This document shows, piece by piece, positions 11,859 through 41,529 of a stretch of DNA of 64,000 nucleotides. Position numbers and translations under genes: made by a program. Position 1 is the first letter of the stretch. Each line of letters starts with the position of its first letter. The stretch spans positions 5,792,001-5,856,000 of the forward strand of contig OZ253462.1 of the NCBI GenBank assembly GCA_965261395.1. Reading direction: 5' to 3'. The notes beneath the pieces are model-generated. The model saw nothing but the letters and a program-made list of their open reading frames with translations, had not been told where the DNA came from and ran no database searches. The DNA is from Candidatus Latescibacterota bacterium. GTDB taxonomy: Bacteria > Latescibacterota > UBA2968 > UBA8231.

Positions 11859-11863
11859 GCGGG

Positions 11864-12008
11864 CTAGATCGTCGTCGCCAAACCTCCCCGTCAACGCGGA
11901 TATCTGTGCCGGTGAATCTGGCCGCTCGTTGCGATTGCGACTGTGCATCAAGAGACGTACCTTCGTTTCGCATAAATAGCATCTAGCGGCCGTTACCCGG
12001 ACTAATTG
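11864..12008 (+). repeat. Module copy A: SDR 3'-end copy + promoter + truncated attI-like site
   Basis: 11864-11915 matches 26431-26483; remainder matches 14427-14520 and 24247-24337. Confidence 0.9.
11935..11963 (+). promoter_or_regulatory. Putative cassette promoter (Pc-like), copy A
   Basis: TTGCGA-17 bp-TACCTT; hexamers invariant in all three copies while the spacer varies. Confidence 0.6.
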
Positions 12009-12035
12009 AATCAGGAATGCAGAGGATAATGTGAT

Positions 12036-12650
12036 ATGTCGCTGGGAAAGGTCACTTGTTTTATAACGCGTAGCTTGGACGGTCGAAAGCACTTTCTCCT
12101 ACTAAAGCACCCCTACGCCGGCAATCAAATACCTGCCGGGACGGTGGAAAAGGGAGAATCCTTTGTCGCCGCGGCACTCCGGGAGGCCCGCGAAGAAACG
12201 GGTCTAGCCGCATTGAATGTTGTCGCGGAACTTTTGTCGGAACGGGAGAAGCTACCTCCCAACACAGCCGTCATCCAGAAGACTTCCACTGTATACTCTC
12301 GTCCAGACACTGGCAGTTTCGATTGGGTCACGATTCGAAGAGGTATTCGCGTTGACACCCGGGAAACTGAAAACGGTTTCGTGCAAATCAATTATGCAGA
12401 AAAAGAGTCGCTCGGTTCGGATAGGATCTCGTTTCAAATAACTGGCTGGATACCACAAGATGCTCTGACGACCGCTGTTGAGCGTAAGCACTATCACTTA
12501 AGTTGCGCAGTAAGTGATGAGCTTGAGTGGGAAGTCTTTTCTGATCACCACAAGTTTGTCCTAATGTGGCATCCGTTGACCGAAGATCCCAAATTGCAGG
12601 AACCATTTGGGGAGTGGTTCGGCTCCATCAAGGAGCATCTCGTTGATTAG
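12036..12650 (+). CDS. NUDIX hydrolase (cassette gene)
   Basis: Nudix box GTVEKGESFVAAALREAREETG. Confidence 0.85.
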   Translation: MSLGKVTCFITRSLDGRKHFLLLKHPYAGNQIPAGTVEKGESFVAAALREAREETGLAALNVVAELLSEREKLPPNTAVIQKTSTVYSRPDTGSFDWVTIRRGIRVDTRETENGFVQINYAEKESLGSDRISFQITGWIPQDALTTAVERKHYHLSCAVSDELEWEVFSDHHKFVLMWHPLTEDPKLQEPFGEWFGSIKEHLVD

Positions 12651-12667
12651 CTAGACAGATCAACTTC

Positions 12668-12750
12668 AGCTAACACGGCACCCCCGGCTCGGGCCTGACG
12701 ACCCTCGACCCAACCTGCTTTGCAGGTTCGTGGATCGACAGCCGTTAGAA
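12668..12750 (+). other. Divergent attC-like site
   Basis: AGCTAAC...GTTAGAA ends just after the NUDIX stop, with internal hairpin (aacctgc/gcaggtt). Confidence 0.55.
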
Positions 12751-12815
12751 GAAATGGGGGAAAAGCATCAGCGTATAAGCAACATATCACCGCAATGAAG
12801 TAGAAGGAGTCTTCC

Positions 12816-13924
12816 ATGAATAGCAAGACTAGTATCGTAGATGAGTTTTTGCTTAAAGGGCTTATTGGTATGAGCCGAGCAACCAGTAAGAATCGTATGT
12901 CCGGCCATCCAGCGGCTGCGATGCTGGCTGCATATTTTTTTTGTGCTGAGAATGCCCTCTCAACCGAAGTTCAGGTCAAAGTCTATGATCTCGTGAAACG
13001 CATGGTCAACTCAGAGTCGATGTGGTTCAGCCGGGATGGGGAATCTTCAACCAATGAGATTCTTTTTTCGACCGAACTAGATCAGAGACCAAACGCGGAT
13101 CTAATACCATCTGTTGCCGCTGCACTTGAGCCAAGTATCACCGAATGTCGGGATTCAGGACACAATACTATCTTCGCGTCCTTAGAAGCCGTCTGAAAAC
13201 CCCCTGTCGGGCTGTTTTTCGGGTGGTCAAGCGATCTAGGCGTCGAGCGTTTTTCATAGGGCGAGACGCCCTCGATCCCAGCGGCTTGGAGTCAAAGCAG
13301 AGATCGAAACCCTAGTTTTCAGACGGCTTCTTAGCTCTAAAGGCACTACATGCTGCACCACAGTATGCATTTCCTGCGATTATAGAAGGTATCAATGACT
13401 TGCTCAAAGCTTTTGAGGGACAGGGACCGGGATGGGCACCTGTACCAGGTAATGAGAAATTAGCAGACCCTCGTGAGTTGTCAGTGGCTCAAGAACTGGT
13501 CGATCATCCCTATGAGAGCTATGTCGATATGATCGATGCGATATCCCGCTATGTCGTACCAGACAACTTCACCAAAAGAGGCGTTGGTGGACCGATCCAT
13601 GTCATAGATCATGCCGTAGCTCTATTGGATCTGCAGACATTGGGGTATACTTCATTGGCGCATAAAGGGATGGCAGCTCATCAGCAACATATTGAGTTGT
13701 GGTTGAGCCTTCCGAAATTTCCGCAAGCTGAAAACAGTTACTCCGTGAAATCGGAGCACGATCCTCGCACAGCGGACTACTGGCGTGAGGAAATAACCAT
13801 AAAAGATGGCGGTGGCGATGAACATCGGTTGAAGATTCTCTATGGCGCTCATCGTTTTGCAGATTGCATTACAGACGTAAACAAACGTCGTAGTTTTCTT
13901 GAAAGTGCGGCATACCTGTTTTGA
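12816..13924 (+). pseudogene. Hypothetical ~320-aa cassette protein interrupted by a MITE
   Basis: Removing 13185-13330 plus one TTA restores a continuous frame (HNTIFASL-ALKALHAAPQ...LLKAF). Confidence 0.85.
13185..13330. mobile_element. 146-bp MITE with IS5-type ends
   Basis: Perfect 16-bp TIR GAAGCCGTCTGAAAAC/GTTTTCAGACGGCTTC; TTA target duplication. Confidence 0.92.
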
Positions 13925-13969
13925 AAATGTGCCTAACTTGCGTGGGCGACAGACCTGATTGATTCAGGA

Positions 13970-14305
13970 GTGCTGGATGGTCAGATCCCCAAAGGCGGCA
14001 CTAGAAATGTCCTGCGGGATGAACTGGCAAGCATACGAGCCGACCTGCCACCAGAAGACGTGGTGTTCACCCACGGGGATTATTGCCTTCCCAACGTCAT
14101 GATCCTCAAAGGCCACCTGAGTGGCTACATTGATTGGGGCTATGCAGGAATAGGAGATCGATATCTCGACTTTGTCGCCGCGTACAACACCATTCGCAGA
14201 AATCTGGGCGGAGAGTGGGTTCCCTTGTTTTTCCGGGAGTATGGGCAAGAATTGGATCAGGCCAAGTTGAGCGTGTATCAAAGGATCCATGACCTCGTAG
14301 ACTAA
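13970..14305 (+). pseudogene. Aminoglycoside 3'-phosphotransferase (APH)-like C-terminal fragment
   Basis: THGDYCLPNV and YIDWG..G.GDRY.D motifs; N-terminal lobe missing. Confidence 0.75.
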
Positions 14306-14311
14306 GAGGGA

Positions 14312-14541
14312 TTGAGACAAATCGCAAATTGTGACATTTTTTTTCACTGTAAAGCGTGGCGTCTCGCCGCCCTTTAGATCGTCGTCGCCAAAACCCCCCC
14401 GTCAACGCGGATGTCCGTGCCGGTGACATCTGGCCGCTCGTTGCGATTGCGACTATGCACCAAGAGACATACCTTCGTTTCGCATAAATAGCATCTAGCG
14501 GCTTGTACCCGAACTAATTGTTCGGGTACAAGCAGTTACAC
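14312..14541 (+). repeat. Module copy B: SDR-downstream flank + SDR 3'-end copy + promoter + attI-like site
   Basis: 14312-14426 matches 26367-26483; palindrome ACCCGAAC-TAATT-GTTCGGGT followed by GTTACAC core at 14535. Confidence 0.9.
14447..14475 (+). promoter_or_regulatory. Putative cassette promoter (Pc-like), copy B
   Basis: TTGCGA-17 bp-TACCTT. Confidence 0.6.
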
Positions 14542-14601
14542 GAAAGCGGCGTGCCGGGTTTGCACCATTCTTAGATCCCGTGCCCCAACGGGACTGATAC
14601 C

Positions 14602-15366
14602 ATGGGAATCAATGAGGTGGCAGATTCTGAATATGACAAGATAGGTGATTTCTATCTCAACTGGCTGGATAGGAATGTTCCGGATAGGAATAGGCGTATC
14701 CAGCCCTCGGTAGAAATCATGCTGACTATGCTGGGCGATGTCCAAGGGATCAGTATATGTGACTTGGGATGCGGTGAAGGGTATCTGTCTCGCATCCTAG
14801 CGAGCCGAGGTGCTCTCGTTACGGGTGTTGATATTTCACAGATGCTGCTGCGGCATGCAAAGGAGCATTCTGATGACCACGGCATCACCTATGTCCTGGA
14901 CGATGCACAATCGCTGAATCAGGTGTCCGACGCCAGCATGGATGCCGTTATTTGCAACATGGCACTCATGGATATCCCTGACCTAACGGCAACATTGTTT
15001 AATGTCCGTCGGGTACTTGTCGACAATGGCAAGTTCATCTTCACAATTCTTCATCCGTGCTTTTTCACTCCGTTCAATGCAGAGAATCCACCGGAGGAGT
15101 TTGACGAAGAGGGAAATTTCAAGGCATTGCGTGTTTCAAGGTATGGCCTTGAAGGCAAATGGTACTCCGATGGAATCGGGATGTGTGGCACGCTTGGTAG
15201 CCACCACCGAACGCTTTCAACGTACTTCAATACCTTGACCAGAAGTGGATTCCAACTTGTCGAGATCTCTGAACCGCTTGATTCTGTAGCAGACGCGGTG
15301 GAGAGGCGTCGAGAAAGCATAGTGCCGACACTCTTGATTGCCAAGGCAATCGCCCTGCCATCATAG
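14602..15366 (+). CDS. Class I SAM-dependent methyltransferase (cassette gene)
   Basis: DLGCGEG motif I, HPCF, HRTLSTY. Confidence 0.88.
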   Translation: MGINEVADSEYDKIGDFYLNWLDRNVPDRNRRIQPSVEIMLTMLGDVQGISICDLGCGEGYLSRILASRGALVTGVDISQMLLRHAKEHSDDHGITYVLDDAQSLNQVSDASMDAVICNMALMDIPDLTATLFNVRRVLVDNGKFIFTILHPCFFTPFNAENPPEEFDEEGNFKALRVSRYGLEGKWYSDGIGMCGTLGSHHRTLSTYFNTLTRSGFQLVEISEPLDSVADAVERRRESIVPTLLIAKAIALPS

Positions 15367-15406
15367 GCGTTTTCGTGTATATTTCGGGCGTTGCAGAGCC
15401 GCAATT

Positions 15407-15495
15407 GTGTAACAGCACGGTTTGCGCTGCGGCGCTGACGCGCCTTGGCCTTCGGCAACCTGCTGCACGGGTCCGCAAGCCGTAAAACGTTATGT
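15407..15495 (+). other. attC site
   Basis: GTGTAAC...GTTATGT; the R'' box is the exact complement of the cassette-start core GTTACAC (14535). Confidence 0.85.
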
Positions 15496-15532
15496 GCAAT
15501 TGCAGTCCCGGAGCGCTGCCTAAACCCAAATC

Positions 15533-16317
15533 ATGGGAACTCTAATGCCCCGCCCTGATCTCAAAACTACTTTCAATACCATTGCCTTGCTCTACGACGA
15601 AGTGAGGCCCGGATACCCTGATGAGCTTGTCAGGGATGTTTTGGACCTCTCCGGAATGGATAGAAGCGGAAAAATCCTGGAAGTCGGATGTGGAACCGGA
15701 CAGGCTTCGAGATTATTTGCCACCCTCGGTTGCGAAATGACCTGTTTGGATATTGGCCAAGATTTGATCGAGGTTGCGAAGGCGCGACTCAACAATTACA
15801 AGAACGTTCGCTTCGTCCTGTGCCCTTTCGAAGATTGGGACTCGGCTAGCAAGTTTGACCTTGTAATCTCCGCGACTGCATTTCGCTGGGTGGTCCAAGA
15901 GTCAGATTCATTAGAGCCCGTGACACCCTGAAGGCTAGGGGATCATTGGCCATCTTCTCCAACTAGCACGTAAGAAGAGACGAAGGTTTCTTTGCGGAAG
16001 TCCAGGAAGTTTATAGCAAGCATTATGTAGTTTCAGATTCCCCTCGGGATCCCAGTACTCCGACGACATCAGAGTCCCCAGAACCCGGAACTACCGCTTT
16101 TGCCGATCCTATCCACCGAGTGTACGCGTGGACAGCGAACTATTCTGCGGAACAGTACATCAAACTCATTGGCACCTATTCTGACCACATCGCGCTGCCC
16201 GAATTCAATCGCACGCACCTATTTGACGGTATAGCTGACCTGATAAACAAGAACTACGGAGGATCGATCACCAAGCACTACGAAACTGCTTTAGCATTTC
16301 GCAGGAAGAAAGCCTGA
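15533..16317 (+). pseudogene. Class I SAM methyltransferase, frameshifted and with an internal stop
   Basis: LEVGCGTGQ in 15533-15931; C-terminal YSDH...LFDGI part in another frame. Confidence 0.8.
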
Positions 16318-16392
16318 TTGAAGTTTAGAGCGAACCCAAGAGTTCTTCGCCAAGCGCGCAGCCAGATGGGAGTATTTCGGGAGTTGATTTGA

Positions 16393-17373
16393 GTGGATAA
16401 GCGATCTCTGCAAACTCTGTCAAAAGACGAAAGAACAGCAGCATTGCACGAGCTGGCCGAAGCCAGTCTTGCTGACTTCGATTTGACGGGAGGCTCACTC
16501 ATGTTGCTGCAGGACTTAGTGAATAGCTCATTCCGGGTTCAACATGACAGTGGACAGTGGTATCTGCGTATTTACAATCCCGACAGGCATAATACATCAG
16601 CTATCGAGTCTGAACTCTTGTTCTTGGAAGCTCTCACCAAAGGTGGCTTTCCAGCGCCTCGGCCGTTGCGTAAGCGCAGTGATGGGATGCTTTGGGTGGC
16701 GTCACAGAGCCCGGTTGTGGACGCAATCCGAATATCAGTATGCTCTTGGCTCCCGGGTGAGATATTGCAGCATGACAAGACACCACGGCACTATGCCAAC
16801 TTAGGAACCGCGTTAGCAGGACTCCACGAGTTCTCCGCCAAATGGAATCCATCCGAGGGGTTCGTACGTCCCCGTTGCGATAGTGAAGGTGTATACGGCA
16901 ATCACGGTGCTTCAGGATCGAAAGTCATGCGAGGCTGGGACAACATTGACAGTCCTCTTCGCTCGGATCTCGAAGATGCGAAGAGAGCACTTGAACAGGC
17001 CGAGAACGCTATTGGAACAGATTGTGGTCGCTACGGTTTGATCCACGCTGATCCAAGTTTCGGCAACGTCCTGTTTGATGGCGAAATACCATACCTGATC
17101 GATTTCGATGATTTCGGGTACGGCCACTATGTCTTCGATCTCGCAGTTGTTCTTGCTGGCGCCTGGGGCAAGCCTGATTTCGCAGAGAATCGCGCGGCTT
17201 TGTTCGAAGGATACGGGCAAATACGAGAACTGTCGCAGGCAGAAATGGGGGCATTGCCCGCAGCCATGGCAGCGCGAGTGGCATCGCTCATTTTCTGGGC
17301 TGCGGCTCAGGCATCACAGCATCCATGGATTGAAGGGCAGTGGCAACGCCTCAAGGAATACATGGAATCGTGA
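16393..17373 (+). CDS. APH/homoserine kinase type II-family phosphotransferase
   Basis: LIHADPSFGNV and IDFDDFG motifs. Confidence 0.85.
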   Translation: MDKRSLQTLSKDERTAALHELAEASLADFDLTGGSLMLLQDLVNSSFRVQHDSGQWYLRIYNPDRHNTSAIESELLFLEALTKGGFPAPRPLRKRSDGMLWVASQSPVVDAIRISVCSWLPGEILQHDKTPRHYANLGTALAGLHEFSAKWNPSEGFVRPRCDSEGVYGNHGASGSKVMRGWDNIDSPLRSDLEDAKRALEQAENAIGTDCGRYGLIHADPSFGNVLFDGEIPYLIDFDDFGYGHYVFDLAVVLAGAWGKPDFAENRAALFEGYGQIRELSQAEMGALPAAMAARVASLIFWAAAQASQHPWIEGQWQRLKEYMES

Positions 17374-17492
17374 TGGAAGAAAGGCACTAAAAGCCAGACG
17401 CACTCGTCGGGCTTACGGCCGAGCGCGATCTGCAGCCTTAGGAGCCGGTGGAGCGGCACTTCCAGCCCGAAGTAGAGGTAGAAATCCACATC

Positions 17493-17578
17493 GCTTAACA
17501 CCGTGTTTTCGCTGCTCCGCCTACGGCGGCTTGGCCTTGGCAATCCCTTCGGGGTTCGCAAACCCTGAAACGTTACAG
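17493..17578 (+). other. attC site
   Basis: GCTTAAC...GTTACAG; shares the cttggcc.t.ggcaa core with the other attC copies. Confidence 0.8.
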
Positions 17579-17601
17579 GAACATGAAACCATAAAGCACA
17601 G

Positions 17602-18864
17602 ATGCTTATTAGGAACGGAAACGGTCATAAGGAAGGGCGGCAACGGGGTATTTATAGATATATAGTTTCAATAATATCTATTTTGTGCTTCACCAGCGGC
17701 GTTATGGCCGATGCTCCCAAGATTGGCTTTTGGGAAAAGCAGCGTAAGGGAGCTAATCAGCAAAACGAGCGACATCGTCCTGAGTGGTACAGGGCGGCAG
17801 GTGAACTGGGATTGGATTATGTGCGGATTTTACCCGATGCATGGCCCGCCGATAATAGAGACTTCCTAATCGGCAACGCAGATAATTTCGAAGCAATCAA
17901 TGAGACCGATCTAGCCCTGTTGATAGAAGCACTCAATGAAGCCGAGAGCAATGGTATCAAAGTTGTCCTTGCGATGGCCAGCTTGCCCGGTGGACGCTGG
18001 AAGCAGCTGAATGAGAACCAAGATGATGGCCGGCTCTGGCGTGACGAAAGCTACCATAAGCAAGCCTTCAATTTCTGGCGTCAGTTAGCAATGCGTTTGG
18101 AAAAGCATCCTGCAATCGTAGCTTACAACCCTCTCAATGAACCACATCCAGAGAAGGTATTCGGTTTTGCAGAACCGGACGAGAATTTCAGCCAATGGTT
18201 TCAGGGCATCCAGAATACGCCAGCTGACCTCAACCGATTTAACCAGCGGATGGTCGAATCCATCCGTTCAGTAGACGCAGATACGCCCATCATGCTCGAT
18301 GGCTGGTTCTATGCCGCTCCTCAAGCGTTCGACTTCAATCGCCCTGTAGATGATGACAAAGTGTTGTACGCTTTTCACAACCCCGGTCCGTGGCAGATGG
18401 TGACTTATCGAGCCAATAAGGACCGGTACGCCTATCCAGACCGAGTTCCGAAGTGGTGGAACGGTCCTGTAGAGTCGTGGACTATCGATCGTCTTGCGGA
18501 GGAGATCAACGCGGTGCAGCGGTTTTCTGAGCGATATGAGATACCTTCTCACCGAATCATAGCTTCAGAATTCTGGTACGACCGCCGGCTCGAAGGCGCT
18601 GCGGCCTACCTGAGCGACCTAATAGAAATCTATAACAGCCAAGGTTGGCATTGGTCGTTTTACGCCTTTCGCGGTGATGGATCATGGTCGGGGTTAGATT
18701 ATGAAATCGCATCGAGTCACAAGATGGGTTGGCATTATTGGCAAGCTGTCGAACAGGGCAAAGATCCCGAGCAATTCAAGCCACGAGGAATGAACCCCTT
18801 GTGGAAAATACTACAACGCCAGTTTCGCAAAAACAGTAAGAGTCATGACTTCATTCCCCCGTGA
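17602..18864 (+). CDS. Glycoside hydrolase family 5 (cellulase-like), signal peptide likely
   Basis: YNPLNEP acid/base motif, IIASEF nucleophile, WHWSFY. Confidence 0.8.
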   Translation: MLIRNGNGHKEGRQRGIYRYIVSIISILCFTSGVMADAPKIGFWEKQRKGANQQNERHRPEWYRAAGELGLDYVRILPDAWPADNRDFLIGNADNFEAINETDLALLIEALNEAESNGIKVVLAMASLPGGRWKQLNENQDDGRLWRDESYHKQAFNFWRQLAMRLEKHPAIVAYNPLNEPHPEKVFGFAEPDENFSQWFQGIQNTPADLNRFNQRMVESIRSVDADTPIMLDGWFYAAPQAFDFNRPVDDDKVLYAFHNPGPWQMVTYRANKDRYAYPDRVPKWWNGPVESWTIDRLAEEINAVQRFSERYEIPSHRIIASEFWYDRRLEGAAAYLSDLIEIYNSQGWHWSFYAFRGDGSWSGLDYEIASSHKMGWHYWQAVEQGKDPEQFKPRGMNPLWKILQRQFRKNSKSHDFIPP

Positions 18865-18883
18865 TCGAGAATCTACGTCACCG

Positions 18884-19682
18884 ATGGTGACGACTGAGGA
18901 AGCTTCAGACATTCTCTGGAAGCACTGGGGTGTCGCAGCCATTCAAGTAGAAACGCCCACTTCCAGGAACGTCCATTTTGTGCGCAGCGCGCAAGGAAAT
19001 TCTGTTCTTCGGACCAATCCGGGGAGGGATCTATCCGAAGAAGGCGGGCAAGGTTCTTGCGAGCATTCATAATGCTGCCGGATTATTTCAGGAACAGCCA
19101 GTGCGCGAGCAATCTGTCCGTCGCTGGGCGCAAGATCGACTTTCCAGCGCGCTCGGTCGGCTTGATACGGAAATCGCACAGCCAGTGCACGAATTGGCGC
19201 AACTGCTGGAAAGCAGCCATGCAACGGCTCTTGACGCAAGCGTCCCTTGGATCCTTTGCCATTGGGATGTTCGTGCAGCTAATGTGGTCGGGGCCGGCAC
19301 TGGCAGCATCGCGTTCACGGATTTCAGCAGCGGGGAGTTTTCTCCAGCTTTGGTGGATCTTGTCATGACGCGTCACCAGTGGTTAATGGGGGATCTTATG
19401 GGTAAAGCTAGACCGCTGAATGTTGCGGAAGCGAGGGAGATATTGCTTGGCTATCACGAGGGGAGAGCTCTATCTCAGTCGGAAATAAGAGCGTTTCCGG
19501 TGGTTTGGGCAGCCTACTATGCAGATAGACTCAGCTTCCTCTACCGAAAGTGGGGTTCTAAAGTCACAGATCCTCCATTCTCGACTTTTGATATCCACGG
19601 TGAGTTGACGCGCCTACCACACCGAGGAATCGAGATGGGAGACGAATTGCTGGAGAGTGCCGGGATCTCCCACAGCCTATAA
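18884..19682 (+). pseudogene. Phosphotransferase (APH-like), frameshifted/partly deleted
   Basis: N-terminus MVTTEEASDIL in one frame; CHWDVRAANV and TDF motifs in another. Confidence 0.65.
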
Positions 19683-19770
19683 CACCGTGTTTGCACTGTG
19701 GCGCTTCGCGCCTTGGCCTCCGGCAACCCCTCGACAAGCTTGGGGTTCGGGCACGGCGAGAACGTTATCC
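19677..19770 (+). other. attC site
   Basis: CTATAAC...GTTATCC overlapping the stop codon; R'' is a 6/7 complement of GTTACAG (17572). Confidence 0.85.
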
Positions 19771-19813
19771 GCAATGGAAAAAACCAACTCATAAAAGCCT
19801 CTGAGGGAATGCC

Positions 19814-20686
19814 TTGATCGACATGAATGGCCCTGCATACGATAGTGGGGCCCCCAACGAAGTGCTGAATGCCGCCAGCAAACACCATCTGTGGACGGGC
19901 AAGGGAGGTCTGTCGGTCAAGTCATTCTCAAATGGCACGGCAAAGTATGAGATCGACAACCACGCGATCGAAGTCGATGAGCATTCATATCTGATTCTGA
20001 ATTACGGACAGGAATACACGGTATCTATCGACTCTCCTTCGATTGTTGGGTCATTTTGTGTCTTCTTCAGGGATGGATTTGCTGAGGAGGTCTACGCATC
20101 CATCAATTCTAGAGCTATCAAGCTTCTTGATGATCCAGCACGTCAGTCGCGCCGGTTGGAATTCTTCCAGACCACTCGCCCGCAGGATCGCGTTCTGACT
20201 CCGACTCTGAGCCGGTTCAGATCAGAGTACTCACTGCGAAGTGAAGAGCTTGGATGGGTCGAGGAGCAGATGCACGCGGTGATGGTTGGACTTCTGAGTG
20301 CACATCATCAGGTTTTGAAGGAAGTAGAGACAGTTGAGGCCGTTCGTGCGGCGACGCGAAAGGAGCTTTACCGTCGCATCCACATGGCTCGCGACTATAT
20401 CTGTTCCTCCCTCTCGGAGCCGATCTCCCTCGATGCGATGGCTAAGGTGGCGTGTCTCTCCTCGAATCACTTCCTGCGGACATTTCGCCAGATAGTCGGT
20501 CAGAGCCCACACCAGTATCTTGTTATGAAGCGACTGGAGCGAGCCGCCAGGCTATTGGAGACTACAGATCGGACTGTGACAGAGATTGCCCTAGAAATCG
20601 GATTCGCAAGCCTTGGTTCATTCAGTTGGCTTTTTCGGCGGCACTATGGTCTCTCGCCGAGACAATTCCGCAGAACAAAAAGGTGA
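19814..20686 (+). CDS. AraC-family transcriptional regulator
   Basis: C-terminal double HTH: ACLSSNHFLRTF...GFASLGSFSWLF. Confidence 0.9.
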   Translation: MIDMNGPAYDSGAPNEVLNAASKHHLWTGKGGLSVKSFSNGTAKYEIDNHAIEVDEHSYLILNYGQEYTVSIDSPSIVGSFCVFFRDGFAEEVYASINSRAIKLLDDPARQSRRLEFFQTTRPQDRVLTPTLSRFRSEYSLRSEELGWVEEQMHAVMVGLLSAHHQVLKEVETVEAVRAATRKELYRRIHMARDYICSSLSEPISLDAMAKVACLSSNHFLRTFRQIVGQSPHQYLVMKRLERAARLLETTDRTVTEIALEIGFASLGSFSWLFRRHYGLSPRQFRRTKR

Positions 20687-20770
20687 TTTCAGAGAAGTCT
20701 GCGGCCGAGGAATTCTGTAGTTTAGGTTCGGTAGGAGCAGCTATTGAACCCACACCACAGGAGGTCCAGA

Positions 20771-21163
20771 ATGACGCAGCATAGTGGATTCGGTCTATCG
20801 ACCATAGGGCAAATATCTGTCACCGTGAAGGAACTCGACAGGGCAGTTATCTTCTACCGAGATCAACTGGGAATGCAGTTCCTGTTTCGGGTGCCGAACA
20901 TGGCGTTCTTTGATTGCTCAGGCGTACGCCTCATGTTGAGTATCCCGGAGGGGCAGTCTGACGATATCCATTCCTCTGTTCTGTATTACAGAGTTGACGA
21001 CATCCATGACGCCTACCGGGTTTTGAAGGGTAGGAACGTGCCGTTCGATGGAGGGCCTCACAAGATTGCTGATCTTCAAGACCACGAGTTGTGGATGGCG
21101 TTCTTTCGAGATAGCGAGATGAACATCCTTGCACTCATGGCTGAGAGGCCCCACGACGAATAG
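20771..21163 (+). CDS. VOC/glyoxalase-family protein
   Basis: IGQISVTV...FYRDQLG...WMAFFRDSE.N.LALM. Confidence 0.88.
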   Translation: MTQHSGFGLSTIGQISVTVKELDRAVIFYRDQLGMQFLFRVPNMAFFDCSGVRLMLSIPEGQSDDIHSSVLYYRVDDIHDAYRVLKGRNVPFDGGPHKIADLQDHELWMAFFRDSEMNILALMAERPHDE

Positions 21164-21181
21164 CCTCAGATGAGGTGCTGA

Positions 21182-22000
21182 TTGGATCGAATAGCGACCT
21201 ATTACAACAGAAAGAACGAGAGCCAACGTCTCTTCAGTGGCCGGGGCGAGCTAGAATTCCTCCGCACTAAACAGATCATAGAGCAGTTTCTCCCCGATGA
21301 AACTGGTTTGTCGATAGTAGACGTTGGTGGAGGATCTGGACCGTACGCGTTCTGGCTTGCCGAGAAGGGGCACAAGGTCGCCTTGTTTGATTTGATGCCT
21401 AACCACGTTGAAGAGGCCGTGTCGATCAACAAGAAAGCACCAAATCCGCTCTCTCGGATCGAAACTGTCGATGTACGATCTCTCGAACTTGAGTCTCAGC
21501 AGTATGATGTAGTCCTACTTTTGGGACCCATGTACCATCTCACCGATGCAAACGAGCGCAGCCTAGTGCTACGGAAGGTCGCCGATTGGCTTGCCCCCAA
21601 CGGTGTCGGGTATGTGGCATATATCTCGAGGTTTGGGTCGATGTTCGATGGTTTCATAAGTGGCTTATTTGAGGATCCGGAATATCTGGATATTGTGCGG
21701 CAAGATTTAGCAACAGGTGTCCACCGTCCCAACAAGGACAATACCAGATACTTTACTGATGCCTATCTCCACCACCCGGATGAGATCGAACGGGAAGCTG
21801 AGGAGGCACATTTACAGATCGTGGATCACATCGCCGTCGAGGGTGTGGCGTGGTTATGGCAGAATTTTGATCAGATTTGGTCGGATCCGCGACAACGGTC
21901 TATCATGCTCGAGATGATAGACCGAACCGATCGAGATCGCTCTCTCTTGGGTGCGAGTGGCCACATTCTTCTTGTCGTGAAGAGGCGAGACATCGAATAA
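21182..22000 (+). CDS. Class I SAM-dependent methyltransferase
   Basis: VDVGGGSGPY and LLLGPMYHL motifs. Confidence 0.88.
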   Translation: MDRIATYYNRKNESQRLFSGRGELEFLRTKQIIEQFLPDETGLSIVDVGGGSGPYAFWLAEKGHKVALFDLMPNHVEEAVSINKKAPNPLSRIETVDVRSLELESQQYDVVLLLGPMYHLTDANERSLVLRKVADWLAPNGVGYVAYISRFGSMFDGFISGLFEDPEYLDIVRQDLATGVHRPNKDNTRYFTDAYLHHPDEIEREAEEAHLQIVDHIAVEGVAWLWQNFDQIWSDPRQRSIMLEMIDRTDRDRSLLGASGHILLVVKRRDIE

Positions 22001-22083
22001 CAGCACGGCTTGTGCTGCGACGCATTCGCGCCTTGGCCTTCGGCAACCTGCTACGCTGGTTTGCAAACCGTGAGACGTTATGA
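21995..22083 (+). other. attC site
   Basis: GAATAAC...GTTATGA overlapping the stop codon; R'' is a 6/7 complement of GTTATCC (19764); close match to 15407-15495. Confidence 0.85.
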
Positions 22084-22161
22084 GGCATGGGAGCTTTAGG
22101 GACGATTGGTGGTGCCAGAGGGCACTAAGACCGTGGTAACTACACAGAGGATCAACCATCG

Positions 22162-22542
22162 ATGGAGACTGAACTTACTGCCGAAGATCGGGAACTCTTA
22201 CAGCGCTTAGAAGAAGAGTTGTGGCGAGAGGAAACGCGTTTCGACGTATCGAGAATGGAGGAAATCATCGCCGAGGACTTCTTCGAGTTTGGCAGGTCTG
22301 GGCGTATCTACCAGCGCGCCGACACGCTTGCGGTACCTTCAACACCCATAGAAGCGGTGATTCCACTTCCAGCCTTTGATGCGCGTCTTCTTTCTGAAGG
22401 TGTCGCCCAGGTAACGTACAATAGTGTCGTCACCTACGGCGAAAATATCGAGGAGGCACGAAGGAGCTCAATCTGGACGCGGTCGTCTGGTGGTTGGAAG
22501 CTGAGATTCCATCAAGGGACCCCATTTTCGAGTGACGATTGA
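22162..22542 (+). CDS. DUF4440/NTF2-like protein
   Basis: DFFEFGRSG...RSSIW...W.LRFHQGT. Confidence 0.85.
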   Translation: METELTAEDRELLQRLEEELWREETRFDVSRMEEIIAEDFFEFGRSGRIYQRADTLAVPSTPIEAVIPLPAFDARLLSEGVAQVTYNSVVTYGENIEEARRSSIWTRSSGGWKLRFHQGTPFSSDD

Positions 22543-22592
22543 GCGGGCTTCTCAATTTGTTCTCAATCTTCGGTAAAAGTGCAGAAGTATAG

Positions 22593-24140
22593 ATGAGTGA
22601 ATCACTGAAACAGTCTCTGGGGGCCTTATGCAGTGGGCTGGCTGCCCTTTGGAAGGAGAGTTCGTTCTCAACAGGCTACAGAAGTCCGTTCGAGACTCCT
22701 TATGAAGTAATTACGAGGGCCGATGACAACGCGGCCCTGATGCCAGTCAGTGGTCGCGCCATTCGAGGTTCCACCGGAGTTGAGGTGTCGAGGAGGGAGA
22801 AGAGGCCGTCAAAGGAAAAGGCCACCGAGGATCTGATCACCGACTCTTATGGGCAAGAACAGTCGTTTCACCCGGAAGGGTTAAATCAACGCCTTAGAGA
22901 AACCCGAGACGCAGTTGCAGCCTTTGGTAGAGCAGTCGATGCCGACGTGCCCCTCGGCTACCGACTGCGCCAATCTTTGGGTTATAAGACATGGTCGGCG
23001 AGTCAGTTCGCCGATCTAGATCGAGCAGGGTGGAACTTGGAGCTTGGATGCCTCTTTGCGCTGAGAAAGAGGCTGGCTCGGAGTCTAGTTGCACATGGGT
23101 TCGATCCTGCCAGCCGAGACCAGTTCGAAGGGTGGTTGGCAGTGGAAGAGGAGATCATTCAACATCTTCAAGACCTTCGAACTCTGGACCGCTATGAGTA
23201 CGAAGTACAGATCTTTCTAAATGGACCGCCCGCTGATTTCGAGGGCGAAGCCTCGCTCGTTGATCTTGTGCAAGGTGAAGAAACCATTTCGGTGAGAGTC
23301 TGCTATGCGTCAGATCAGCTTGTGAGCCATCTCGTCGAGTACGAGCACCAGAAAGTTCCTGGTTACGAAAAGATCAATACTGTCTTGCGCTACAGGATTT
23401 CGCTCCCGGTCGAGGTCGGGGAAGAACCGTATCTTCAGGCCTATCCTAAAGCATCGGAGGTAGGAGCTCTCCTCTTGGACGGCCTGAGGCTCCTGCGCCC
23501 AGGCGATGACATTGGAATACTGGCACTGGAAATCGTGGCGGTAGATGACTATGCTCCGACGATTCGTAAAACGTGGGCCGATAGGTTCCAGACCGAACTC
23601 GCTAGGTTCTATCCAAGGAGATTCGACTTCAGGCCACCACAGTGCTCGGTCCTTCAAGAGAAAGAAGTGACAAACCTAGGGACACTCGTGTCGCTTCTAG
23701 TAGGAAAAAGTGGTCGTTCCCGGTCCATCCTCCAAGCACGCAGGAGGCTAGCAAATAGCATCGACCGGTATGCACCTGATGATCCGGAGAAGCTCATCGA
23801 GTACGCGATAGCGCTGGAGTCTCTTTTTCTTGACGATTCTGATAGTAGAACCGAGCTTTCTTACAGACTTGCTCTTCGCGCTGCACGGCTCTTGGAGGAG
23901 GATCTCGAATCGCGCCGCTCTTGTTTCCATACCATACGAGATCTCTACAAGTTTAGGTCCCGCATAGCACATGGTGGTAGTCTGGAAGAGCTGAAGCCCG
24001 TCGAACAGAAACGGCTCGAGAGCGTTCTACTCAGATGCCCCAGTATTGTGTCGAGGTCGATTCGTGCCCTATTGGAACGTGGCCCGAGTGCTGTTGGCAA
24101 GAAGCCTGTCGATTATTGGCAGGAGCTCGAACTGGGGTGA
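22593..24140 (+). CDS. Protein with C-terminal ApeA-like HEPN domain
   Basis: IALESLF...ELSYRLALRAA...LYKFRSRIAHG (Rx4H). Confidence 0.75.
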   Translation: MSESLKQSLGALCSGLAALWKESSFSTGYRSPFETPYEVITRADDNAALMPVSGRAIRGSTGVEVSRREKRPSKEKATEDLITDSYGQEQSFHPEGLNQRLRETRDAVAAFGRAVDADVPLGYRLRQSLGYKTWSASQFADLDRAGWNLELGCLFALRKRLARSLVAHGFDPASRDQFEGWLAVEEEIIQHLQDLRTLDRYEYEVQIFLNGPPADFEGEASLVDLVQGEETISVRVCYASDQLVSHLVEYEHQKVPGYEKINTVLRYRISLPVEVGEEPYLQAYPKASEVGALLLDGLRLLRPGDDIGILALEIVAVDDYAPTIRKTWADRFQTELARFYPRRFDFRPPQCSVLQEKEVTNLGTLVSLLVGKSGRSRSILQARRRLANSIDRYAPDDPEKLIEYAIALESLFLDDSDSRTELSYRLALRAARLLEEDLESRRSCFHTIRDLYKFRSRIAHGGSLEELKPVEQKRLESVLLRCPSIVSRSIRALLERGPSAVGKKPVDYWQELELG

Positions 24141-24194
24141 GCGAGCCCTCCACCGATCGGAATGGGCACGGACGACCACTCGACGGCAATCAGC

Positions 24195-24359
24195 TCAGAT
24201 CGTCGTCGCCAAAACCCCCCGTCAACGCGGATGTCCGTGCCGGTGAGAAGCTGCTCGTTGCGATTGCGACTATGCACCAAGAAACCTACCTTCGTTTCGC
24301 ATAAATAGCATCTAGCGGACGTTACTCGAACTACTTGTTCGAGTACAAACAGATATGTG
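24195..24359 (+). repeat. Module copy C: SDR 3'-end copy + promoter (24264-24292) + attI-like site
   Basis: Matches copies A and B; palindrome ACTCGAAC-TACTT-GTTCGAGT; core degenerated to GATATGT. Confidence 0.88.
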
Positions 24360-24467
24360 AAACAGAAAAAGAAACGGAATATAGACGGCATATCTGCCTG
24401 TATACTAGAGGTTGGCTACATATTCGTTGTTCAATCACGAGTTATGCAATGAGACGGAGGTCTAAAC

Positions 24468-25388
24468 TTGAACGCTACCCGGTGGGAATTTGGTTTCTTG
24501 CCAGAATCTACTTCCGCCAACTTTGACGGATGGCGGATAGAACCCCTTGATGATTTCGAAGGGACTCTAGAAAAGTGGAACCAGTTGTCTGATCCCCAAG
24601 GCTGGGTTCTTCCTCCGATCATCGAGCGGGTCAAGGTCAAACGAATTTCCGAGGGAGAAGAGGTCGAGGACGTTGTACCCAATACACGTCGTTCGGTAAA
24701 ATTCTGGCGTATTCCTCCGAGCCACTCTCTCATATATGAGGGTAGGGAGCCACCCGCTCAGGAACCCACCAAACCTGGAGCACCCTACTTCATCGTCCAG
24801 TGCTTGGGAGCGATCAAAGGCTGTGAGCTTCAGCTCTCTAATTGGTGGGTGAGTGGGAAAAAACGTCTGAAGCCACTAGGCTTCCTTCATCCCGTTGACG
24901 GTGCTCTGAACCACTGCCTATCCATGGCCTATGCTTGGTACGATGGACAGGACGATCATAGTAGAAAAGTGATCAGCAGTAGCCTCTTCATACATTCGCA
25001 CAGCGAGTCCTACGAATTCACATGGGAACGCTTCCTGTGGCAACACGCAGCCTTCGAGGGGTGTTGCCACTTGGCGAAGAAAGTGCATGGGATGAAAGCC
25101 GGAGGTCGAAGGAACCGTTTTCAGGTCTTTGCGGATCACTTCGGCCTCCAATCCGACCCAGACCAATTCAGGATATTTAGCCAGATCAGGAATGAGCTCG
25201 TTCACGAAGTAATGTGGGGAAATCAAGTGCCAGGATTTGGTGGCGAGGGTCAACCTTGGAACCAGACCATCTACTTGAGCCACTTCACAACTCTTGCTCT
25301 TTTAGCCGTGATGGATGTAAAGACACCAAGTCTCCATGTGAATTGGAATACAAGAAGTCGCATGGTCCTTGAAACTCCGACCAGATAG
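24468..25388 (+). CDS. Hypothetical protein with HEPN-like motif
   Basis: IRNELVHE (Rx4H) after a helical segment. Confidence 0.55.
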   Translation: MNATRWEFGFLPESTSANFDGWRIEPLDDFEGTLEKWNQLSDPQGWVLPPIIERVKVKRISEGEEVEDVVPNTRRSVKFWRIPPSHSLIYEGREPPAQEPTKPGAPYFIVQCLGAIKGCELQLSNWWVSGKKRLKPLGFLHPVDGALNHCLSMAYAWYDGQDDHSRKVISSSLFIHSHSESYEFTWERFLWQHAAFEGCCHLAKKVHGMKAGGRRNRFQVFADHFGLQSDPDQFRIFSQIRNELVHEVMWGNQVPGFGGEGQPWNQTIYLSHFTTLALLAVMDVKTPSLHVNWNTRSRMVLETPTR

Positions 25389-25399
25389 GAAACGATGTC

Positions 25400-25531
25400 T
25401 GTCAACCAAGCGGCCTTCTTGCAGCAGCCGAGCCCCAACAAGGCGTCGCTCTTCTAATTGGGCACGGGTCAAATGAGTAGGAGCCCAAATCATAAGCGCA
25501 AAACGTAAACCAATTTTAGTGAAAGTCAATA
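25400..25531 (-). mobile_element. IS630-family left-end remnant
   Basis: TA-TTGAC end resembling 33098; MIWAPTHLTRAQLEERRLVGARLL transposase N-terminus. Confidence 0.65.
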
Positions 25532-25557
25532 AGAGCCACCTTGCGCGAGGGGTCGTG

Positions 25558-26055
25558 CTAAGTGAAGTTAGAGTTGGCTGTCTCCTGCTCCATGATTTTC
25601 TCTCTCTTTTTTATAATATCTTTTTCTATTTCTGTAAGCGCCAAATGGATTAGATCCCTCATTCTTATTATCCATTCTTTTTTCCACGCAACCTCGGACA
25701 CAGACAAAATAGAATATGCTTCACACATATCAAAAGAGGCACGCATTTTTTCTGGGCAGGAATGGGCATAAAATTTATGCCTAAAATCGCGCACAACTAT
25801 CTTATGCATCTCCTTTTTTCTCTTTATATAGTTTTCACTAAGTCCCTCAAGGGCACGATAATAAGAAACAACTGAGGCAGTTATCAATGACTCAAAAATG
25901 ATCCGATCCTCTTCCGTCCCACAGTAAAGTACATTGTGATCCATTCCTCTTTTTAGTATGACACTTATATAAGAGTGCGCTTTCCTCAGATTCATGATTG
26001 CCATTTCAAGACTAAATATACTTTCTGCAATCTTGGATTTATTTGCTTCGCCCAT
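25558..26055 (-). CDS. AT-rich hypothetical protein, HEPN-like
   Basis: ASVVSYYR...RHKFYAH motif; composition clearly more AT-rich than flanks. Confidence 0.55.
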   Translation of the reverse strand: MGEANKSKIAESIFSLEMAIMNLRKAHSYISVILKRGMDHNVLYCGTEEDRIIFESLITASVVSYYRALEGLSENYIKRKKEMHKIVVRDFRHKFYAHSCPEKMRASFDMCEAYSILSVSEVAWKKEWIIRMRDLIHLALTEIEKDIIKKREKIMEQETANSNFT

Positions 26056-26173
26056 CTAATTGTCCTTGCTATTATAAGCGCGGGAGACCAGTCGCCCAGC
26101 CTCCCGCCACAGATTAAGCAATCCGATTGGAGTGCGCGGATGTCCGAGACCATATTCCTAGCCGCCTGACGAC

Positions 26174-26404
26174 TTAGTGCAGAGCAGCGTCTAGCGTTGC
26201 TTCAACCGGCGGTGGGAATTCGACTTTGTAAAAGCGGTCGGCATCAAATGCGTAATCTTCGCCACTTTCATCCACCATGCGAATGTACCCGTGAGCAGCC
26301 GCCTCCTGATCGGGAAGTACGCGATACACTTTTCCGACTTCGAGCGAAGCCTCATAGCCTTCATTGTTGAGACAAATCGCAAATTGCGACGTTTTTTTCT
26401 TCAC
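26174..26404 (-). CDS. Small hypothetical protein
   Basis: 76-aa ORF directly downstream of the SDR; its first codons recur at 14312-14347. Confidence 0.7.
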   Translation of the reverse strand: MKKKTSQFAICLNNEGYEASLEVGKVYRVLPDQEAAAHGYIRMVDESGEDYAFDADRFYKVEFPPPVEATLDAALH

Positions 26405-26430
26405 TGTAAAGCGTGGCGTCTCGTCGCTCT

Positions 26431-27237
26431 TTAAATCGTTGTCGCTAAAAATCCCCCGTCAACGCGGATGTCCGTGCCAGTGACGAAGCCGCTGGCTGCG
26501 TCCGACGCGAGGAACACCGCCGCGCCGACTAGCTCTTCGGGGCGGCCAAAGCGATCCATGGGCGTGTGGGAGAGGATTTGTTGGCCGCGCTCGGTTGGGG
26601 TGCCGTCTTCCTCAAAGAGCAAGCGGCGGTTTTGCTCGGCGGGGAAAAAGCCCGGGGTGATGGAGTTGACCCGTACGCCTTGGTCGGCCCACTCGCGCGC
26701 GAGGAATTGCGTCAGGTTCACGACGGCCGCTTTAGCCGCGGAGTACGCCACCACCCGCGAAACCGGCAGGTGGGCGGCAACCGAGGCGATGTTGATGATG
26801 CTACCCCGGCCCCGTGCGACCATGGCCGAGCCGAATTCTTGGCAGGGCAACAGCGCGCCAGCCCCCAAGTTCAGGTCGAAACAACGCTGCCAATCGTCGG
26901 TTGTTATCGCGGCAAAGTCTAGGTCGTCGTTCAGGGTCACCTGCGGCTGATTGCCGCCGGCTGCGTTGAGTAGCACGTTGACGGGACCCAATGCCGCGAC
27001 GACCGCTTCATGGGCTGCCTTGAGCGATGCTTTGTCCGTGGCGTCGCAGGCGGCGAAAACGCCCGTGCCTCCTGCTGCCTCTATTGCCGCTACTCGCTTA
27101 TTCCCCCGGTCGTGGTCCCGCCCCAACACTGCTACAGAGGCTCCGGCCTCGGCCAATCCCTGGGCCATCGCCCCGCCCAATACGCCGGTCCCACCGATGA
27201 CTGCCGCTACTTCGCCGCGCAAATTCCATTGACTCAT
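26431..27237 (-). CDS. SDR oxidoreductase (UxuB/gluconate 5-dehydrogenase-like)
   Basis: GGTGVLG, NAAG, YSAAK, PGFF and VTGTDIRVDGG motifs. Confidence 0.9.
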   Translation of the reverse strand: MSQWNLRGEVAAVIGGTGVLGGAMAQGLAEAGASVAVLGRDHDRGNKRVAAIEAAGGTGVFAACDATDKASLKAAHEAVVAALGPVNVLLNAAGGNQPQVTLNDDLDFAAITTDDWQRCFDLNLGAGALLPCQEFGSAMVARGRGSIINIASVAAHLPVSRVVAYSAAKAAVVNLTQFLAREWADQGVRVNSITPGFFPAEQNRRLLFEEDGTPTERGQQILSHTPMDRFGRPEELVGAAVFLASDAASGFVTGTDIRVDGGFLATTI

Positions 27238-27238
27238 T

Positions 27239-27946
27239 TCAATACCCCAGTGCTTTAGATAACAGTCCAATAGTGCCGCCGAACACATTGCCCCAGACGA
27301 TTAGCCAGCCCAAGTGCTCGCGGATTACTTCCTCCATCATCTCCTTGACCCGGTCGGGCGTCAGCTCCTCTAACTTGGTCTCCAGCAGTCCGTCAACCTG
27401 CGCCCGCATCGCTTTGACTTCTGTGCCCGCTCCGCCGGCCAAAAGCGGCGCGATCTCGCTCCCGACCCCGACCACGAACTGCTTGACCAGCGGCTTGACC
27501 GTCTGCGTCCCTACCAGTTGGATCATCATTCCCTGCGGCGATTCCGCCAACTCTTCCAGCTTGCGGTCAATGATTGCGTCCACCTCGTCGGACGCCAGCA
27601 CCGTTTGCACCTTTTCTCCCACATCCTCTCCGGCCATCTGCTCGGCGAGGAATCGCTCCAGATACTCCTCGTCGAAGAAGTAGCGCATGATGGCATCTTT
27701 GACCGCTTCCCTGATGGCGCGAAACCGCGCCGGAATCACTCCCGACCCGTACAGCAGGGGCACGCGGTCGAAGAGCATCTTTACTGCCAACCAATTGGTC
27801 GCTCCGCCGGCAAAGCCAAACAACCCAACCGCCAACACCCACTCGCTGCCGCCGACGCCCTCAACGCGCCCCCAGAGGCCCGCCACCAGCAGGGCGAGCG
27901 AAATCAGGTTGCTGACGTTGCCCTTTTCCCAACGCGCTTTCTGCAT
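27239..27946 (-). CDS. DUF445-family membrane protein
   Basis: GGATNWLAVKMLF and HLGWLIVWGNVFGG. Confidence 0.8.
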   Translation of the reverse strand: MQKARWEKGNVSNLISLALLVAGLWGRVEGVGGSEWVLAVGLFGFAGGATNWLAVKMLFDRVPLLYGSGVIPARFRAIREAVKDAIMRYFFDEEYLERFLAEQMAGEDVGEKVQTVLASDEVDAIIDRKLEELAESPQGMMIQLVGTQTVKPLVKQFVVGVGSEIAPLLAGGAGTEVKAMRAQVDGLLETKLEELTPDRVKEMMEEVIREHLGWLIVWGNVFGGTIGLLSKALGY

Positions 27947-40312: not shown

Positions 40313-40597
40313 GGTGGCGCTCCCTTCGGCTTTGTTCAGGGCAAGCTCTCAATTTTTCGGTCGCTCTGTGAAATGAACTCGTATTCGACCGTATCAGTTT
40401 AACTAACTTCATCACAAAATGACAGTCAATGCGATCTATCCGCGCCTTGACTTATATACCGTGCTGCCCAAGATGCGCATCTTGCGCGAGAAGGGTTTTG
40501 ATCTCTTAGCCAGCAGGCTAGGCCGATCTCTACAACTCGTGGAATATTCTAGAAGCCGTATCCTCTAGATACCTATGCCGCTTCTGAAGTTTTCTCA

Positions 40598-41529
40598 GAA
40601 GCCGTCTGAAAACTATATTTTTTCTATTTGATCCGTTTGAGCAGCAAGTGGATCATAGCAATCTGGATCAAGGCTTCGCTATGGTGGGTCAACACCTCAT
40701 AATCTCGGGCATGTCGGCGAAAATTCATCAACCACGCAAACGTGCGCTCGACGACCCAACGGCGTGGTAACACCTCAAAGCCGGGGCCTTGTTTGGCGAC
40801 GACTTCCAAGTCTATTTTGTGCGTCTTTTTTACGTTAGCCACCCACGTTCGGATCGGATCGCCTCGATAGCCGCCATCGCCCCACAGTTTGCGTAACCGG
40901 GCTACGCCGGAGGCCCCCAAGCGGGTCAACACCTGCTTGAGGCCGTCCCGATCCTCTACATCGGCGGCGGTGACCACCACCTGTCTAAGCAAGCCCGAGG
41001 TGTCGACCAACAGATGACGCTTGCGCCCCTTGACCTTTTTTCCGGCGTCATAACCGGTTGTTTTACCATGGGTTGCCGTCTTGATCGTCTGACTATCGAC
41101 TACGCCAGCCGACGGCGTTGGAGCCCGTCCGTTGAGGCGGCGTTCCCGCTGGGTGAGTCGATCCAATACCTGCGGCCAGACCCCTTGTAGACTCCAGCGA
41201 CGAAAGTAATCATACACCGTTTTCCACGGTCCAAAACAAGAAGGCAACAAAGCCCAAGGACAACCGGTCTTGGTCAGATACAAAAGGCCGTTGACGATCT
41301 GGCGTCGATCCCGCGGTGGCCGACCCGGACCGTTCGGCTGCCATGTCGAAGCCGGCAGCAACGGTTCGATCCGACGCCATTGCACATCGGTTACATCGGT
41401 GGCATATTGCCTACTAGGCGTACTCATCATACGAGCCTTTCTGTTCAGATTTTGTCGCGAAACCTGAATATGGCTCGATGAGTACGCCGATTCAAATACC
41501 GGCTACAGCAAGGGTTTTCAGACGGCTTC
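40598..41529 (-). mobile_element. Intact IS5-family element (transposase 40624-41430)
   Basis: 16-bp TIR GAAGCCGTCTGAAAAC, TCA duplication; VDSQT, KGRKRH, DGGY, RWVVERTF. Confidence 0.95.

Follow-up and report, generated by a model that had tools for sequence, protein, structure and literature searches.

The stretch of DNA described here (the window, 64,000 nt) comprises positions 5,792,001 to 5,856,000 of contig OZ253462.1 (G000:C1:5792001-5856000), a single contig of 6.55 Mb that represents the genome of a Candidatus Latescibacterota bacterium (genome G000). Two convergent genes in the window enclose 14.6 kb of DNA: a gene for a FAD-dependent monooxygenase (FADmo; 10617–11858, plus strand; Pfam FAD_binding_3), and an intact gene for an SDR protein of 285 amino acids (26431–27288, minus strand; Pfam adh_short and adh_short_C2), whose product is 91–96% identical to homologues in Candidatus Latescibacterota metagenome-assembled genomes. 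FADmo forms the conserved left flank of the interval and the SDR gene its anchor. Between them lie repeated copies of the 3' end of the SDR gene, repeated copies of a module that resembles the attI docking site of integrons, and cargo genes with attC-like sites. The interval is probably a strain-variable hotspot at which three recombinase-less integron-like arrays have been stacked by homology-driven recombination.

Two repeat families were recovered by a repeat search. The first consists of 50-nt copies of the SDR 3' end at 11866–11915 (A), 14377–14426 (B), 24197–24246 (C) and 26434–26483 (D), the last being the genuine end of the gene. The second, of 113 nt and termed the module, lies on the plus strand directly after the SDR tail copies, at 11921–12033, 14433–14545 and 24250–24362; the three units headed by modules A, B and C are referred to as X, Y and Z. 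In a BLAST search of the whole genome, matches to the SDR tail were confined to these four places, and the module, besides its three window copies, turned up complete at 2.861 Mb and as fragments near 1.49 Mb; a profile search of the genome added a partial copy at 0.569 Mb. These searches bear out the initial annotation of the sequence in its report that the SDR tail recurs at 11864, 14374 and 24195 and that a module follows each time. That annotation had also read different stop codons in the three copies (TAG, TAA and TGA), and the letters are indeed present; copies A and C, however, are each one base short in a G/T homopolymer run (alignment A2), so that their TAG and TGA are out of frame with the upstream codons, and only copy B is in frame, ending in TAA and carrying one Phe-to-Val change. 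The copies, all in minus-strand orientation (remnant A, 11864–11915, frameshifted by a 1-nt deletion; remnant B, 14374–14426; remnant C, 24195–24262, likewise frameshifted), are decaying remnants and not alternative functional ends. Copy C includes about 9–14 bases more of the SDR gene than A and B and has a different joint to its module, situated inside a GCCGCT/GCTGCT microhomology. Copies B and D also have about 65 nt past the stop codon in common (14312–14376 versus 26367–26433, 90–94% identical); at B, this segment forms the right end of unit X and holds a remnant of the SDR-downstream spacer with the first ~12 codons of a small minus-strand open reading frame (ORF). In the spacer upstream of that small ORF there is a TCGCAAATTGCGA-type palindrome (26376–26392 and 14321–14337), which is similar to the TTGCGATTGCGA repeat on the left side of the module (14441–14453) and possibly represents a shared operator.

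The modules themselves are unequally preserved. Module B (14428–14549, plus strand) is complete, spanning positions 2–123 of the module hidden Markov model (HMM), and consists of a TTGCGA...TACCTT block, a palindrome with 14-bp arms and the terminal word ...CAGTTA. Module C (24250–24365, plus strand) retains the palindrome and ends in ...CAGATA, and module A (11916–12008, plus strand) ends in the palindrome loop at 12008 and is missing the right arm and the GTTA site. The claim that one and the same module follows each SDR copy therefore holds for the TTGCGA-17-TACCTT block, which is found in all three, but not for the CGAAC-N5-GTTCG palindrome and the core site after it, which are confined to B and C. 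An undeleted module A stands before the same NUDIX cassette in relatives (G027) and in a contig of sequencing run X6. Assembly error, which had been raised as an objection to the repeats, is unlikely, because independent Logan contigs (run X5) cover 14473–24240 and 24289–26188 with zero mismatches and because an architecture of the same type is seen in complete genomes of relatives, although the order of the units is not confirmable by short-read contigs.

The nature of the module becomes apparent from related genomes. A profile built from 23 copies in the window genus matched two loci retrieved on account of weak integrase hits. With the recombinase encoded at these loci as query, a search of 168 genomes of the phylum gave a match at E<=1e-50 in 28 of them. 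At 21 loci the homologue is 41–62% identical. At eight of the nine loci whose recombinase is at least 65% identical to the G056 protein (L148–L155) the module lies 100–180 nt upstream of the recombinase gene and divergent from it; the ninth (L176), which has no module match, is a truncated copy of the recombinase gene. After the module come same-strand attC-HMM hits alternating with ORFs, and nothing else, in 20-kb views of six platforms (17 hits in G032, 7 in G056, 6 in G140, and 4 each in G137, G139 and G136). The congeners G140 and G032 have only the recombinase gene and the module in common (1208 nt, 91.9% identity), and their homology stops exactly after ...CAGTTA; within the window genus, the 23 module copies also diverge downstream right after the CAGTTA word. 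The TTGCGA-17-TACCTT block is conserved across genera, and the arms of the palindrome co-vary across them, as in the pairs ACCCGAAC/GTTCGGGT, ATGCGAAC/GTTCGCAT, ACTCGAAC/GTTCGAGT and ACACGAAT/GTTCGTGT. Module B is homologous to modules that adjoin recombinase genes in other genera, and what the window arrays have in common with those of other genera is the module and the attC-like sites, not the cargo. Different cargo follows the module in 22 of 31 genomes of the window genus, which answers a check named in the initial annotation. The linkage to a recombinase gene, the arrays that follow, the boundary at CAGTTA, the co-varying arms and the sharing of module and attC-like sites only are the grounds on which the module is read as attI-like, as had been proposed; it would be the head of an integron-like platform, perhaps with promoters. 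The adjacent recombinase gene is a feature of the relatives only, as the window modules stand without one, and neither an SDR gene nor a FADmo gene lies within 1.5 kb of the intact platforms.

Some further module arrangements may be recorded here. G056 (L185) retains its recombinase and carries two tandem modules (1011–1111 and 6490–6590), in the order first module, two attC-like sites, recombinase gene, second module and its array. Elsewhere in G000, module-led arrays with plus-strand cargo are found at 2.861 Mb (L178:4496-4618), 1.4897–1.4991 Mb (L179) and 0.5688 Mb (L180:4789-4880), none of the three with an SDR remnant. One of the further arrays follows a DCC1-like gene and holds PhyH, ankyrin, methyltransferase and hydrolase genes; another follows an insertion sequence (IS) and holds an AIPR abortive-infection-like gene with GNAT, HAD and PLP decarboxylase genes.

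Five intergenic sites of about 85–95 nt, beginning in ...TAAC and ending in ...GTTA around a common core (a1–a5), are interspersed with the cargo. They were called with a profile of our own, and a profile built from them recovered 11 further sites scattered in G000. Their structure, which was drawn by hand from the sequence of one site, has R and L stems and three inner hairpins. When it was counted over 21 distinct sites of G000 and related genomes, pairing was realized in 503 of 578 cells, against a mean of 463 +/- 4.5 in shuffled sequences, and none of 500 shuffles paired as many; the L stem and the three inner hairpins show compensatory changes. The site family is homogeneous within the lineage, and no Rfam family was matched in 17 kb at E<=1. 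On a contig of run X16, the GTTA of a1 is followed by what lies beyond the GTTA of a2, which amounts to one cassette-exact joint. An inverted repeat at 13181–13200 and 13315–13334, in unit X, was considered as an attC site and rejected, since it belongs to a miniature inverted-repeat transposable element (13181–13334) with 100% identical copies of 148–153 nt at four other places in the genome. The ~20-nt terminal inverted repeats of that element are those of ~930-bp IS copies distributed across the genome, one of which is at 40597–41530 of the window.

The cargo consists of small accessory genes, some of which have a folded attC-like site of 85–105 nt after them, and all the larger ORFs from 12036 to 25388 lie on the plus strand. 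Next to module A is a NUDIX cassette (12009–12753, plus strand), formed by an ORF at 12036–12650 (Pfam NUDIX) and site a1 (12667–12753; attC HMM). The cargo of unit Y (14602–22084, plus strand; Pfam and attC HMM) begins with a methyltransferase gene, a2 (15406–15498), a truncated methyltransferase gene, an APH gene and a3 (17492–17581), and continues with a GH5 cellulase gene, an APH fragment, a4 (19678–19773), genes for an AraC regulator, a glyoxalase and a third methyltransferase, and a5 (21994–22084). The unit ends in a DUF4440 gene and an ORF of 515 amino acids (22162–24140, plus strand), with no attC-like site detected in this part. Unit Z (24468–26404) holds an ORF of 306 amino acids on the plus strand and two on the minus strand, of 165 and 76 amino acids, the latter (26174–26404) adjoining the SDR gene on its downstream side. 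At E<=0.01, Pfam has no match to the ORFs of 76, 127, 165, 306 and 515 amino acids.

The absence of an integrase, which had been noted for the units, extends to the whole genome as far as the integron type is concerned: the best match to TIGR02249 in G000 scores 82 bits against a cut-off of 265, and the window units hold no recombinase gene. The tyrosine recombinases of G000 are three, namely XerD, a XerC-like gene and one distant member, and tblastn with the G056 recombinase gives 38% identity at best; the supply of recombinases in trans that had been postulated finds no candidate beyond these three. In the genus, the only integron integrase found is a split copy in G014, on a contig of 2.4 kb that does not extend to its upstream side, and among 61 relatives only G038 and G055 exceed the TIGR02249 cut-off. 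The module-linked recombinase of the relatives matches TIGR02249 in two stretches with 240.9 bits, below the cut-off, and is without the insertion of about 45 columns seen in the true IntI of G038 (alignment A1); it is 39–40% identical to that IntI, compared with 29% for the XerD and 25% for the XerC-like protein of G000. According to a passage in Cury et al. (2016, PMC4889954), integron integrases are distinguished by an additional domain of ~35 residues near patch III. By definition the window units are not integrons, since the recombinase that goes with the module in relatives is without this IntI-specific insertion. The module-linked recombinase belongs to a wider protein family that is very large and bears generic names. 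Neither the module profile nor the attC profile matched the true-IntI locus of G038, the single such locus sampled in its class. The window genus seems to have lost its recombinase almost entirely, and its array heads to be decaying.

The same interval was compared among relatives by fetching 20 kb from 20 genomes of the genus; 18 loci, the window included, show both flanking genes. The gap between FADmo and the SDR gene ranges from 3 nt to 14.6 kb, the extremes being G025 and the window. In G025 the two stop codons are separated by GCG alone, and this empty site, with the piling up of units at the SDR 3' end, agrees with the repeated insertion that had been proposed for the SDR gene. At least part of the module is found at nine of the 18 loci and none at the other nine. 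The SDR gene is matched over its full length at E<=1e-80 in 28 of the 31 genus genomes, one match having an internal stop, and at 12 of the 21 loci listed the SDR stop gives way to a spacer of the type common to B and D. In G003 (L132), 30-nt direct repeats that cover both gene ends flank an insert of 430 nt; by eye, the ~90-aa ORF of this insert resembles a helix-turn-helix antitoxin-type protein. In G012, FADmo, remnant and module are followed further on by the last 36 nt of FADmo and then the SDR gene, and G022 has an internal copy of the last 34 nt of FADmo together with ~270 nt of SDR and a module. Two units of G029, at 3.5616 and 3.5658 Mb (L101 and L120), have ~270 nt of SDR before the module. 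They lie 0.63 Mb from the intact SDR gene (2.933 Mb), which has no FAD-monooxygenase gene within 19 kb; this layout suggests that the repeated units mediated a rearrangement. A joint after ~97 nt of SDR and further cases of the ~270-nt type come from metagenome contigs. SDR|module joints accordingly occur at about 50, 64, 97 and 270 nt from the stop, and the duplicated host segment runs from 13 nt to ~270 nt of SDR, sometimes with 15–36 nt of FADmo, which does not agree with the fixed att core of the initial annotation. Since both the length of the duplicated host DNA and the position of the joint vary, homologous or homology-facilitated recombination, with no fixed att core, is the likelier process.

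A history of the following kind is consistent with these comparisons. The ancestral platform would be the one seen in related genera, with an IntI-like recombinase gene, a module and a cassette array joined after ...CAGTTA. In the window genus the recombinase would have been lost, docking sites and cassettes persisting and decaying. Whole units, each made up of module, cassettes and a copy of the SDR 3' end, would then have been added one after another on the SDR side, when DNA arriving from other strains used the SDR 3' segment that it carried to recombine with the chromosome, either by Campbell-type integration of a circle or by homology-facilitated illegitimate recombination of a linear piece. 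Each insertion would bring a new SDR end and leave the old one behind. The layout in the window, namely FADmo, old tail, module with cargo and small ORF, tail, module with cargo, tail, module with cargo and small ORF, and finally the SDR gene, is the outcome expected of repeated insertion on that side. The repeats, the empty site, the tie between module and recombinase gene and the boundary at GTTA are shown by the sequences themselves. It is from such an arrangement that we infer the direction and order of accretion, and from the variable joints its homology-driven mechanism.

Several observations weigh against this account. The mechanisms are all read from static comparisons, and the attC-like sites depend on a profile of our own and a hand-drawn structure instead of the attC model of IntegronFinder. 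With only five such sites detected over 14.6 kb, and with simple deletions at several cargo borders (L007), decay and not cassette traffic accounts for much of the order seen today. The leftmost unit, with its remnant, module and NUDIX cassette, is conserved in position in several genomes, and that unit at least would therefore be vertically inherited; an old local duplication of the other units is possible. The nearest relative of each window module is a copy in another genome, by a difference of only 1–2 bases of 88. The joints of A/B and C are no more than ~14 nt apart. G022 (L129, ~17887–17975) and G012 (L130, ~19050–19140; coordinates of re-oriented copies) each have an attC-like site, a different one in each genome, that is fused past an identical ...CCGCTG to the final ~34 nt of FADmo, which reflects either recurrent short-homology joining or an unexplained site preference; with the closeness of the joints, these fusions hint at a preference for sites that pure homology leaves unexplained. 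The promoter that had been assigned to each unit is only putative; a sigma-70 scan of 11800–14700 flagged none in modules A or B (the scan, run with a terminator search, gave 5 promoter-like hits against 3.1 expected in this region). Contigs of run X16, an RNA library, match several cassettes and module sequence at 90–99% identity, but they come from relatives and DNA carry-over is possible, so that they say nothing on transcription or start site; any promoter activity of the module is conjectural.

Accretion through homology has to be set against two other readings of the repeats. The units could be site-specific, non-autonomous islands whose attP holds the SDR tail, with a tyrosine recombinase in trans acting on a defined core at the SDR 3' end. 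One target has been used repeatedly and an empty site exists; junction B, in which a unit end, an SDR tail and a module meet, resembles an attP between tandem elements; and joints A/B and C are close together, as stated above. Because all the duplicated segments overlap, in ~12 nt around the SDR stop, where the empty site reads GCGTTAGAT with a GTT-type core-like word, the fixed-core reading keeps some weight. It is nevertheless considered unlikely, in that the host DNA duplicated at the units differs widely in length and may include FADmo, the joints fall at no fewer than four positions, the base to the left of the common TAGATCG differs among copies, and no candidate recombinase is present in the units or the window and none of the cognate type in the genome. 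Equally improbable is an ancient tandem duplication, by unequal crossing-over, of a single orphan array head, with no movement between genomes. This would suit the conserved position of the leftmost remnant, module and NUDIX cassette, which is the first cassette beside FADmo in G010, G021 and G027 too, with nested deletions of remnant and module; it would suit the many borders that are microhomology deletions; and the copies, 88–92% alike, are old enough to predate species splits. A recent local duplication is unlikely, because modules A, B and C are 90–92% alike, about the interspecies divergence of the flanks, and have their nearest relatives in other genomes. An ancient one is opposed by the unrelated cargo of the three units, by the variation between genomes in unit number and joint type (with the module absent at half of the 18 loci), by joint C, which is unlike joints A and B, by the related units at another chromosomal place in G029, and by the further joint types on metagenome contigs.

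A different objection concerns the module alone, which might be a conserved regulatory leader (a promoter/operator or a 5' untranslated region) carried along with accessory genes, in which case the linkage to the recombinase gene would reflect no more than shared regulation. The left half of the module (TTGC.ACT...TACCTTC...) is in fact more conserved than a bare crossover site requires, a TTGCGAC-type palindrome is also found upstream of the small SDR-downstream ORF, and module sequence occurs in the RNA-library contigs, subject to the possible DNA carry-over. A leader would, however, hardly account for the base-exact end of homology between genomes at ...CAGTTA, past which the genes are unrelated, for the co-variation of the palindrome arms, or for the constant geometry with a recombinase gene and attC-like arrays; no Rfam match and no sigma-70-type promoter were found for it. 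Such a leader, taken as the whole explanation, has very little in its favour as a matter of probability, and the two roles are compatible, in so far as integron attI regions also hold promoters according to a passage in Cury et al. (2016, PMC4889954).

The significance is threefold. The relatives provide a testable natural case on the origins of integrons, in which a close, insertion-less relative of the integrase is tied base-exactly to a docking site and to arrays, and such arrays reach 17 or more detected folded sites. After loss of the recombinase, docking sites and cassettes would persist and decay by microhomology deletions, and the orphan arrays would still be reshuffled between strains by ordinary recombination, for which a core gene next to them serves as anchor. 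Such integrase-less cassette reservoirs may for that reason stay mobile as whole arrays; if true, this would represent a second, homology-driven level of mobility above cassette exchange. The combined proposition, that Latescibacterota possess complete integron-like capture with a recombinase lacking the domain regarded as essential for attC recombination and that its heads move between strains on a copied core-gene tail with no dedicated recombinase, is put forward tentatively, being possible but on balance somewhat doubtful. For annotation, tools that require the IntI insertion will miss or mislabel such arrays.

In comparison with known systems, the platforms of the relatives are closest to sedentary chromosomal integrons. 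They share the layout of a recombinase gene, a divergent docking site and co-oriented cassettes of one ORF plus one folded site, and the arrays of congeners turn over completely, with a border at a GTT-type word. They differ in that the Latescibacterota recombinase is without the ~35-residue IntI insertion (240.9 bits versus 265), the folded sites form a clover-leaf of three inner hairpins, and the docking site holds a co-varying palindrome with arms of 8–14 bp. An IntI with the additional domain was found neither in the window or genome nor in the module-linked recombinase.

Integrative elements, such as genomic islands and the cis-mobilisable elements beside integrative and conjugative elements, accrete in tandem at the 3' ends of tRNA genes or other genes. 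The window resembles them, as part of the target's 3' end is duplicated at every unit border, relatives have an empty site (the stops 3 nt apart in G025), and the stack of non-autonomous units has the intact gene on one side. Unlike them, it has no integrase in the units and none of the cognate type in the genome, where XerD, the XerC-like gene and the distant tyrosine recombinase are the only candidates, and it has no single fixed att core in direct repeat. The duplicated segment and the joints vary, which points to homologous or homology-facilitated recombination.

A literature search, conducted mostly at title and abstract level, yielded no report of integron-like arrays in Latescibacterota, of arrays run by IntI relatives without the insertion, or of tandem attI units at a gene tail. 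The nearest category for the window itself is the CALIN, described in a passage of Cury et al. (2016, PMC4889954) as a cluster of attC sites without an integron integrase, with integrase loss as one of the listed origins. At least two attC sites with no integron integrase nearby define the category, and the window has five attC-like sites between 12667 and 22084, as called with our own profile, with co-oriented cargo and no integrase nearby or in the genome. As the sites belong to an IntI-less system, the definition used by IntegronFinder may miss them. In contrast to a CALIN as described, the window arrays keep their attI-like heads, three in tandem, each fused to the remnant of a host gene tail. 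The system of the relatives is integron-like but lacks the IntI-specific domain, and the window fits the CALIN category with orphan heads added; it is the tandem orphan docking sites that are new.

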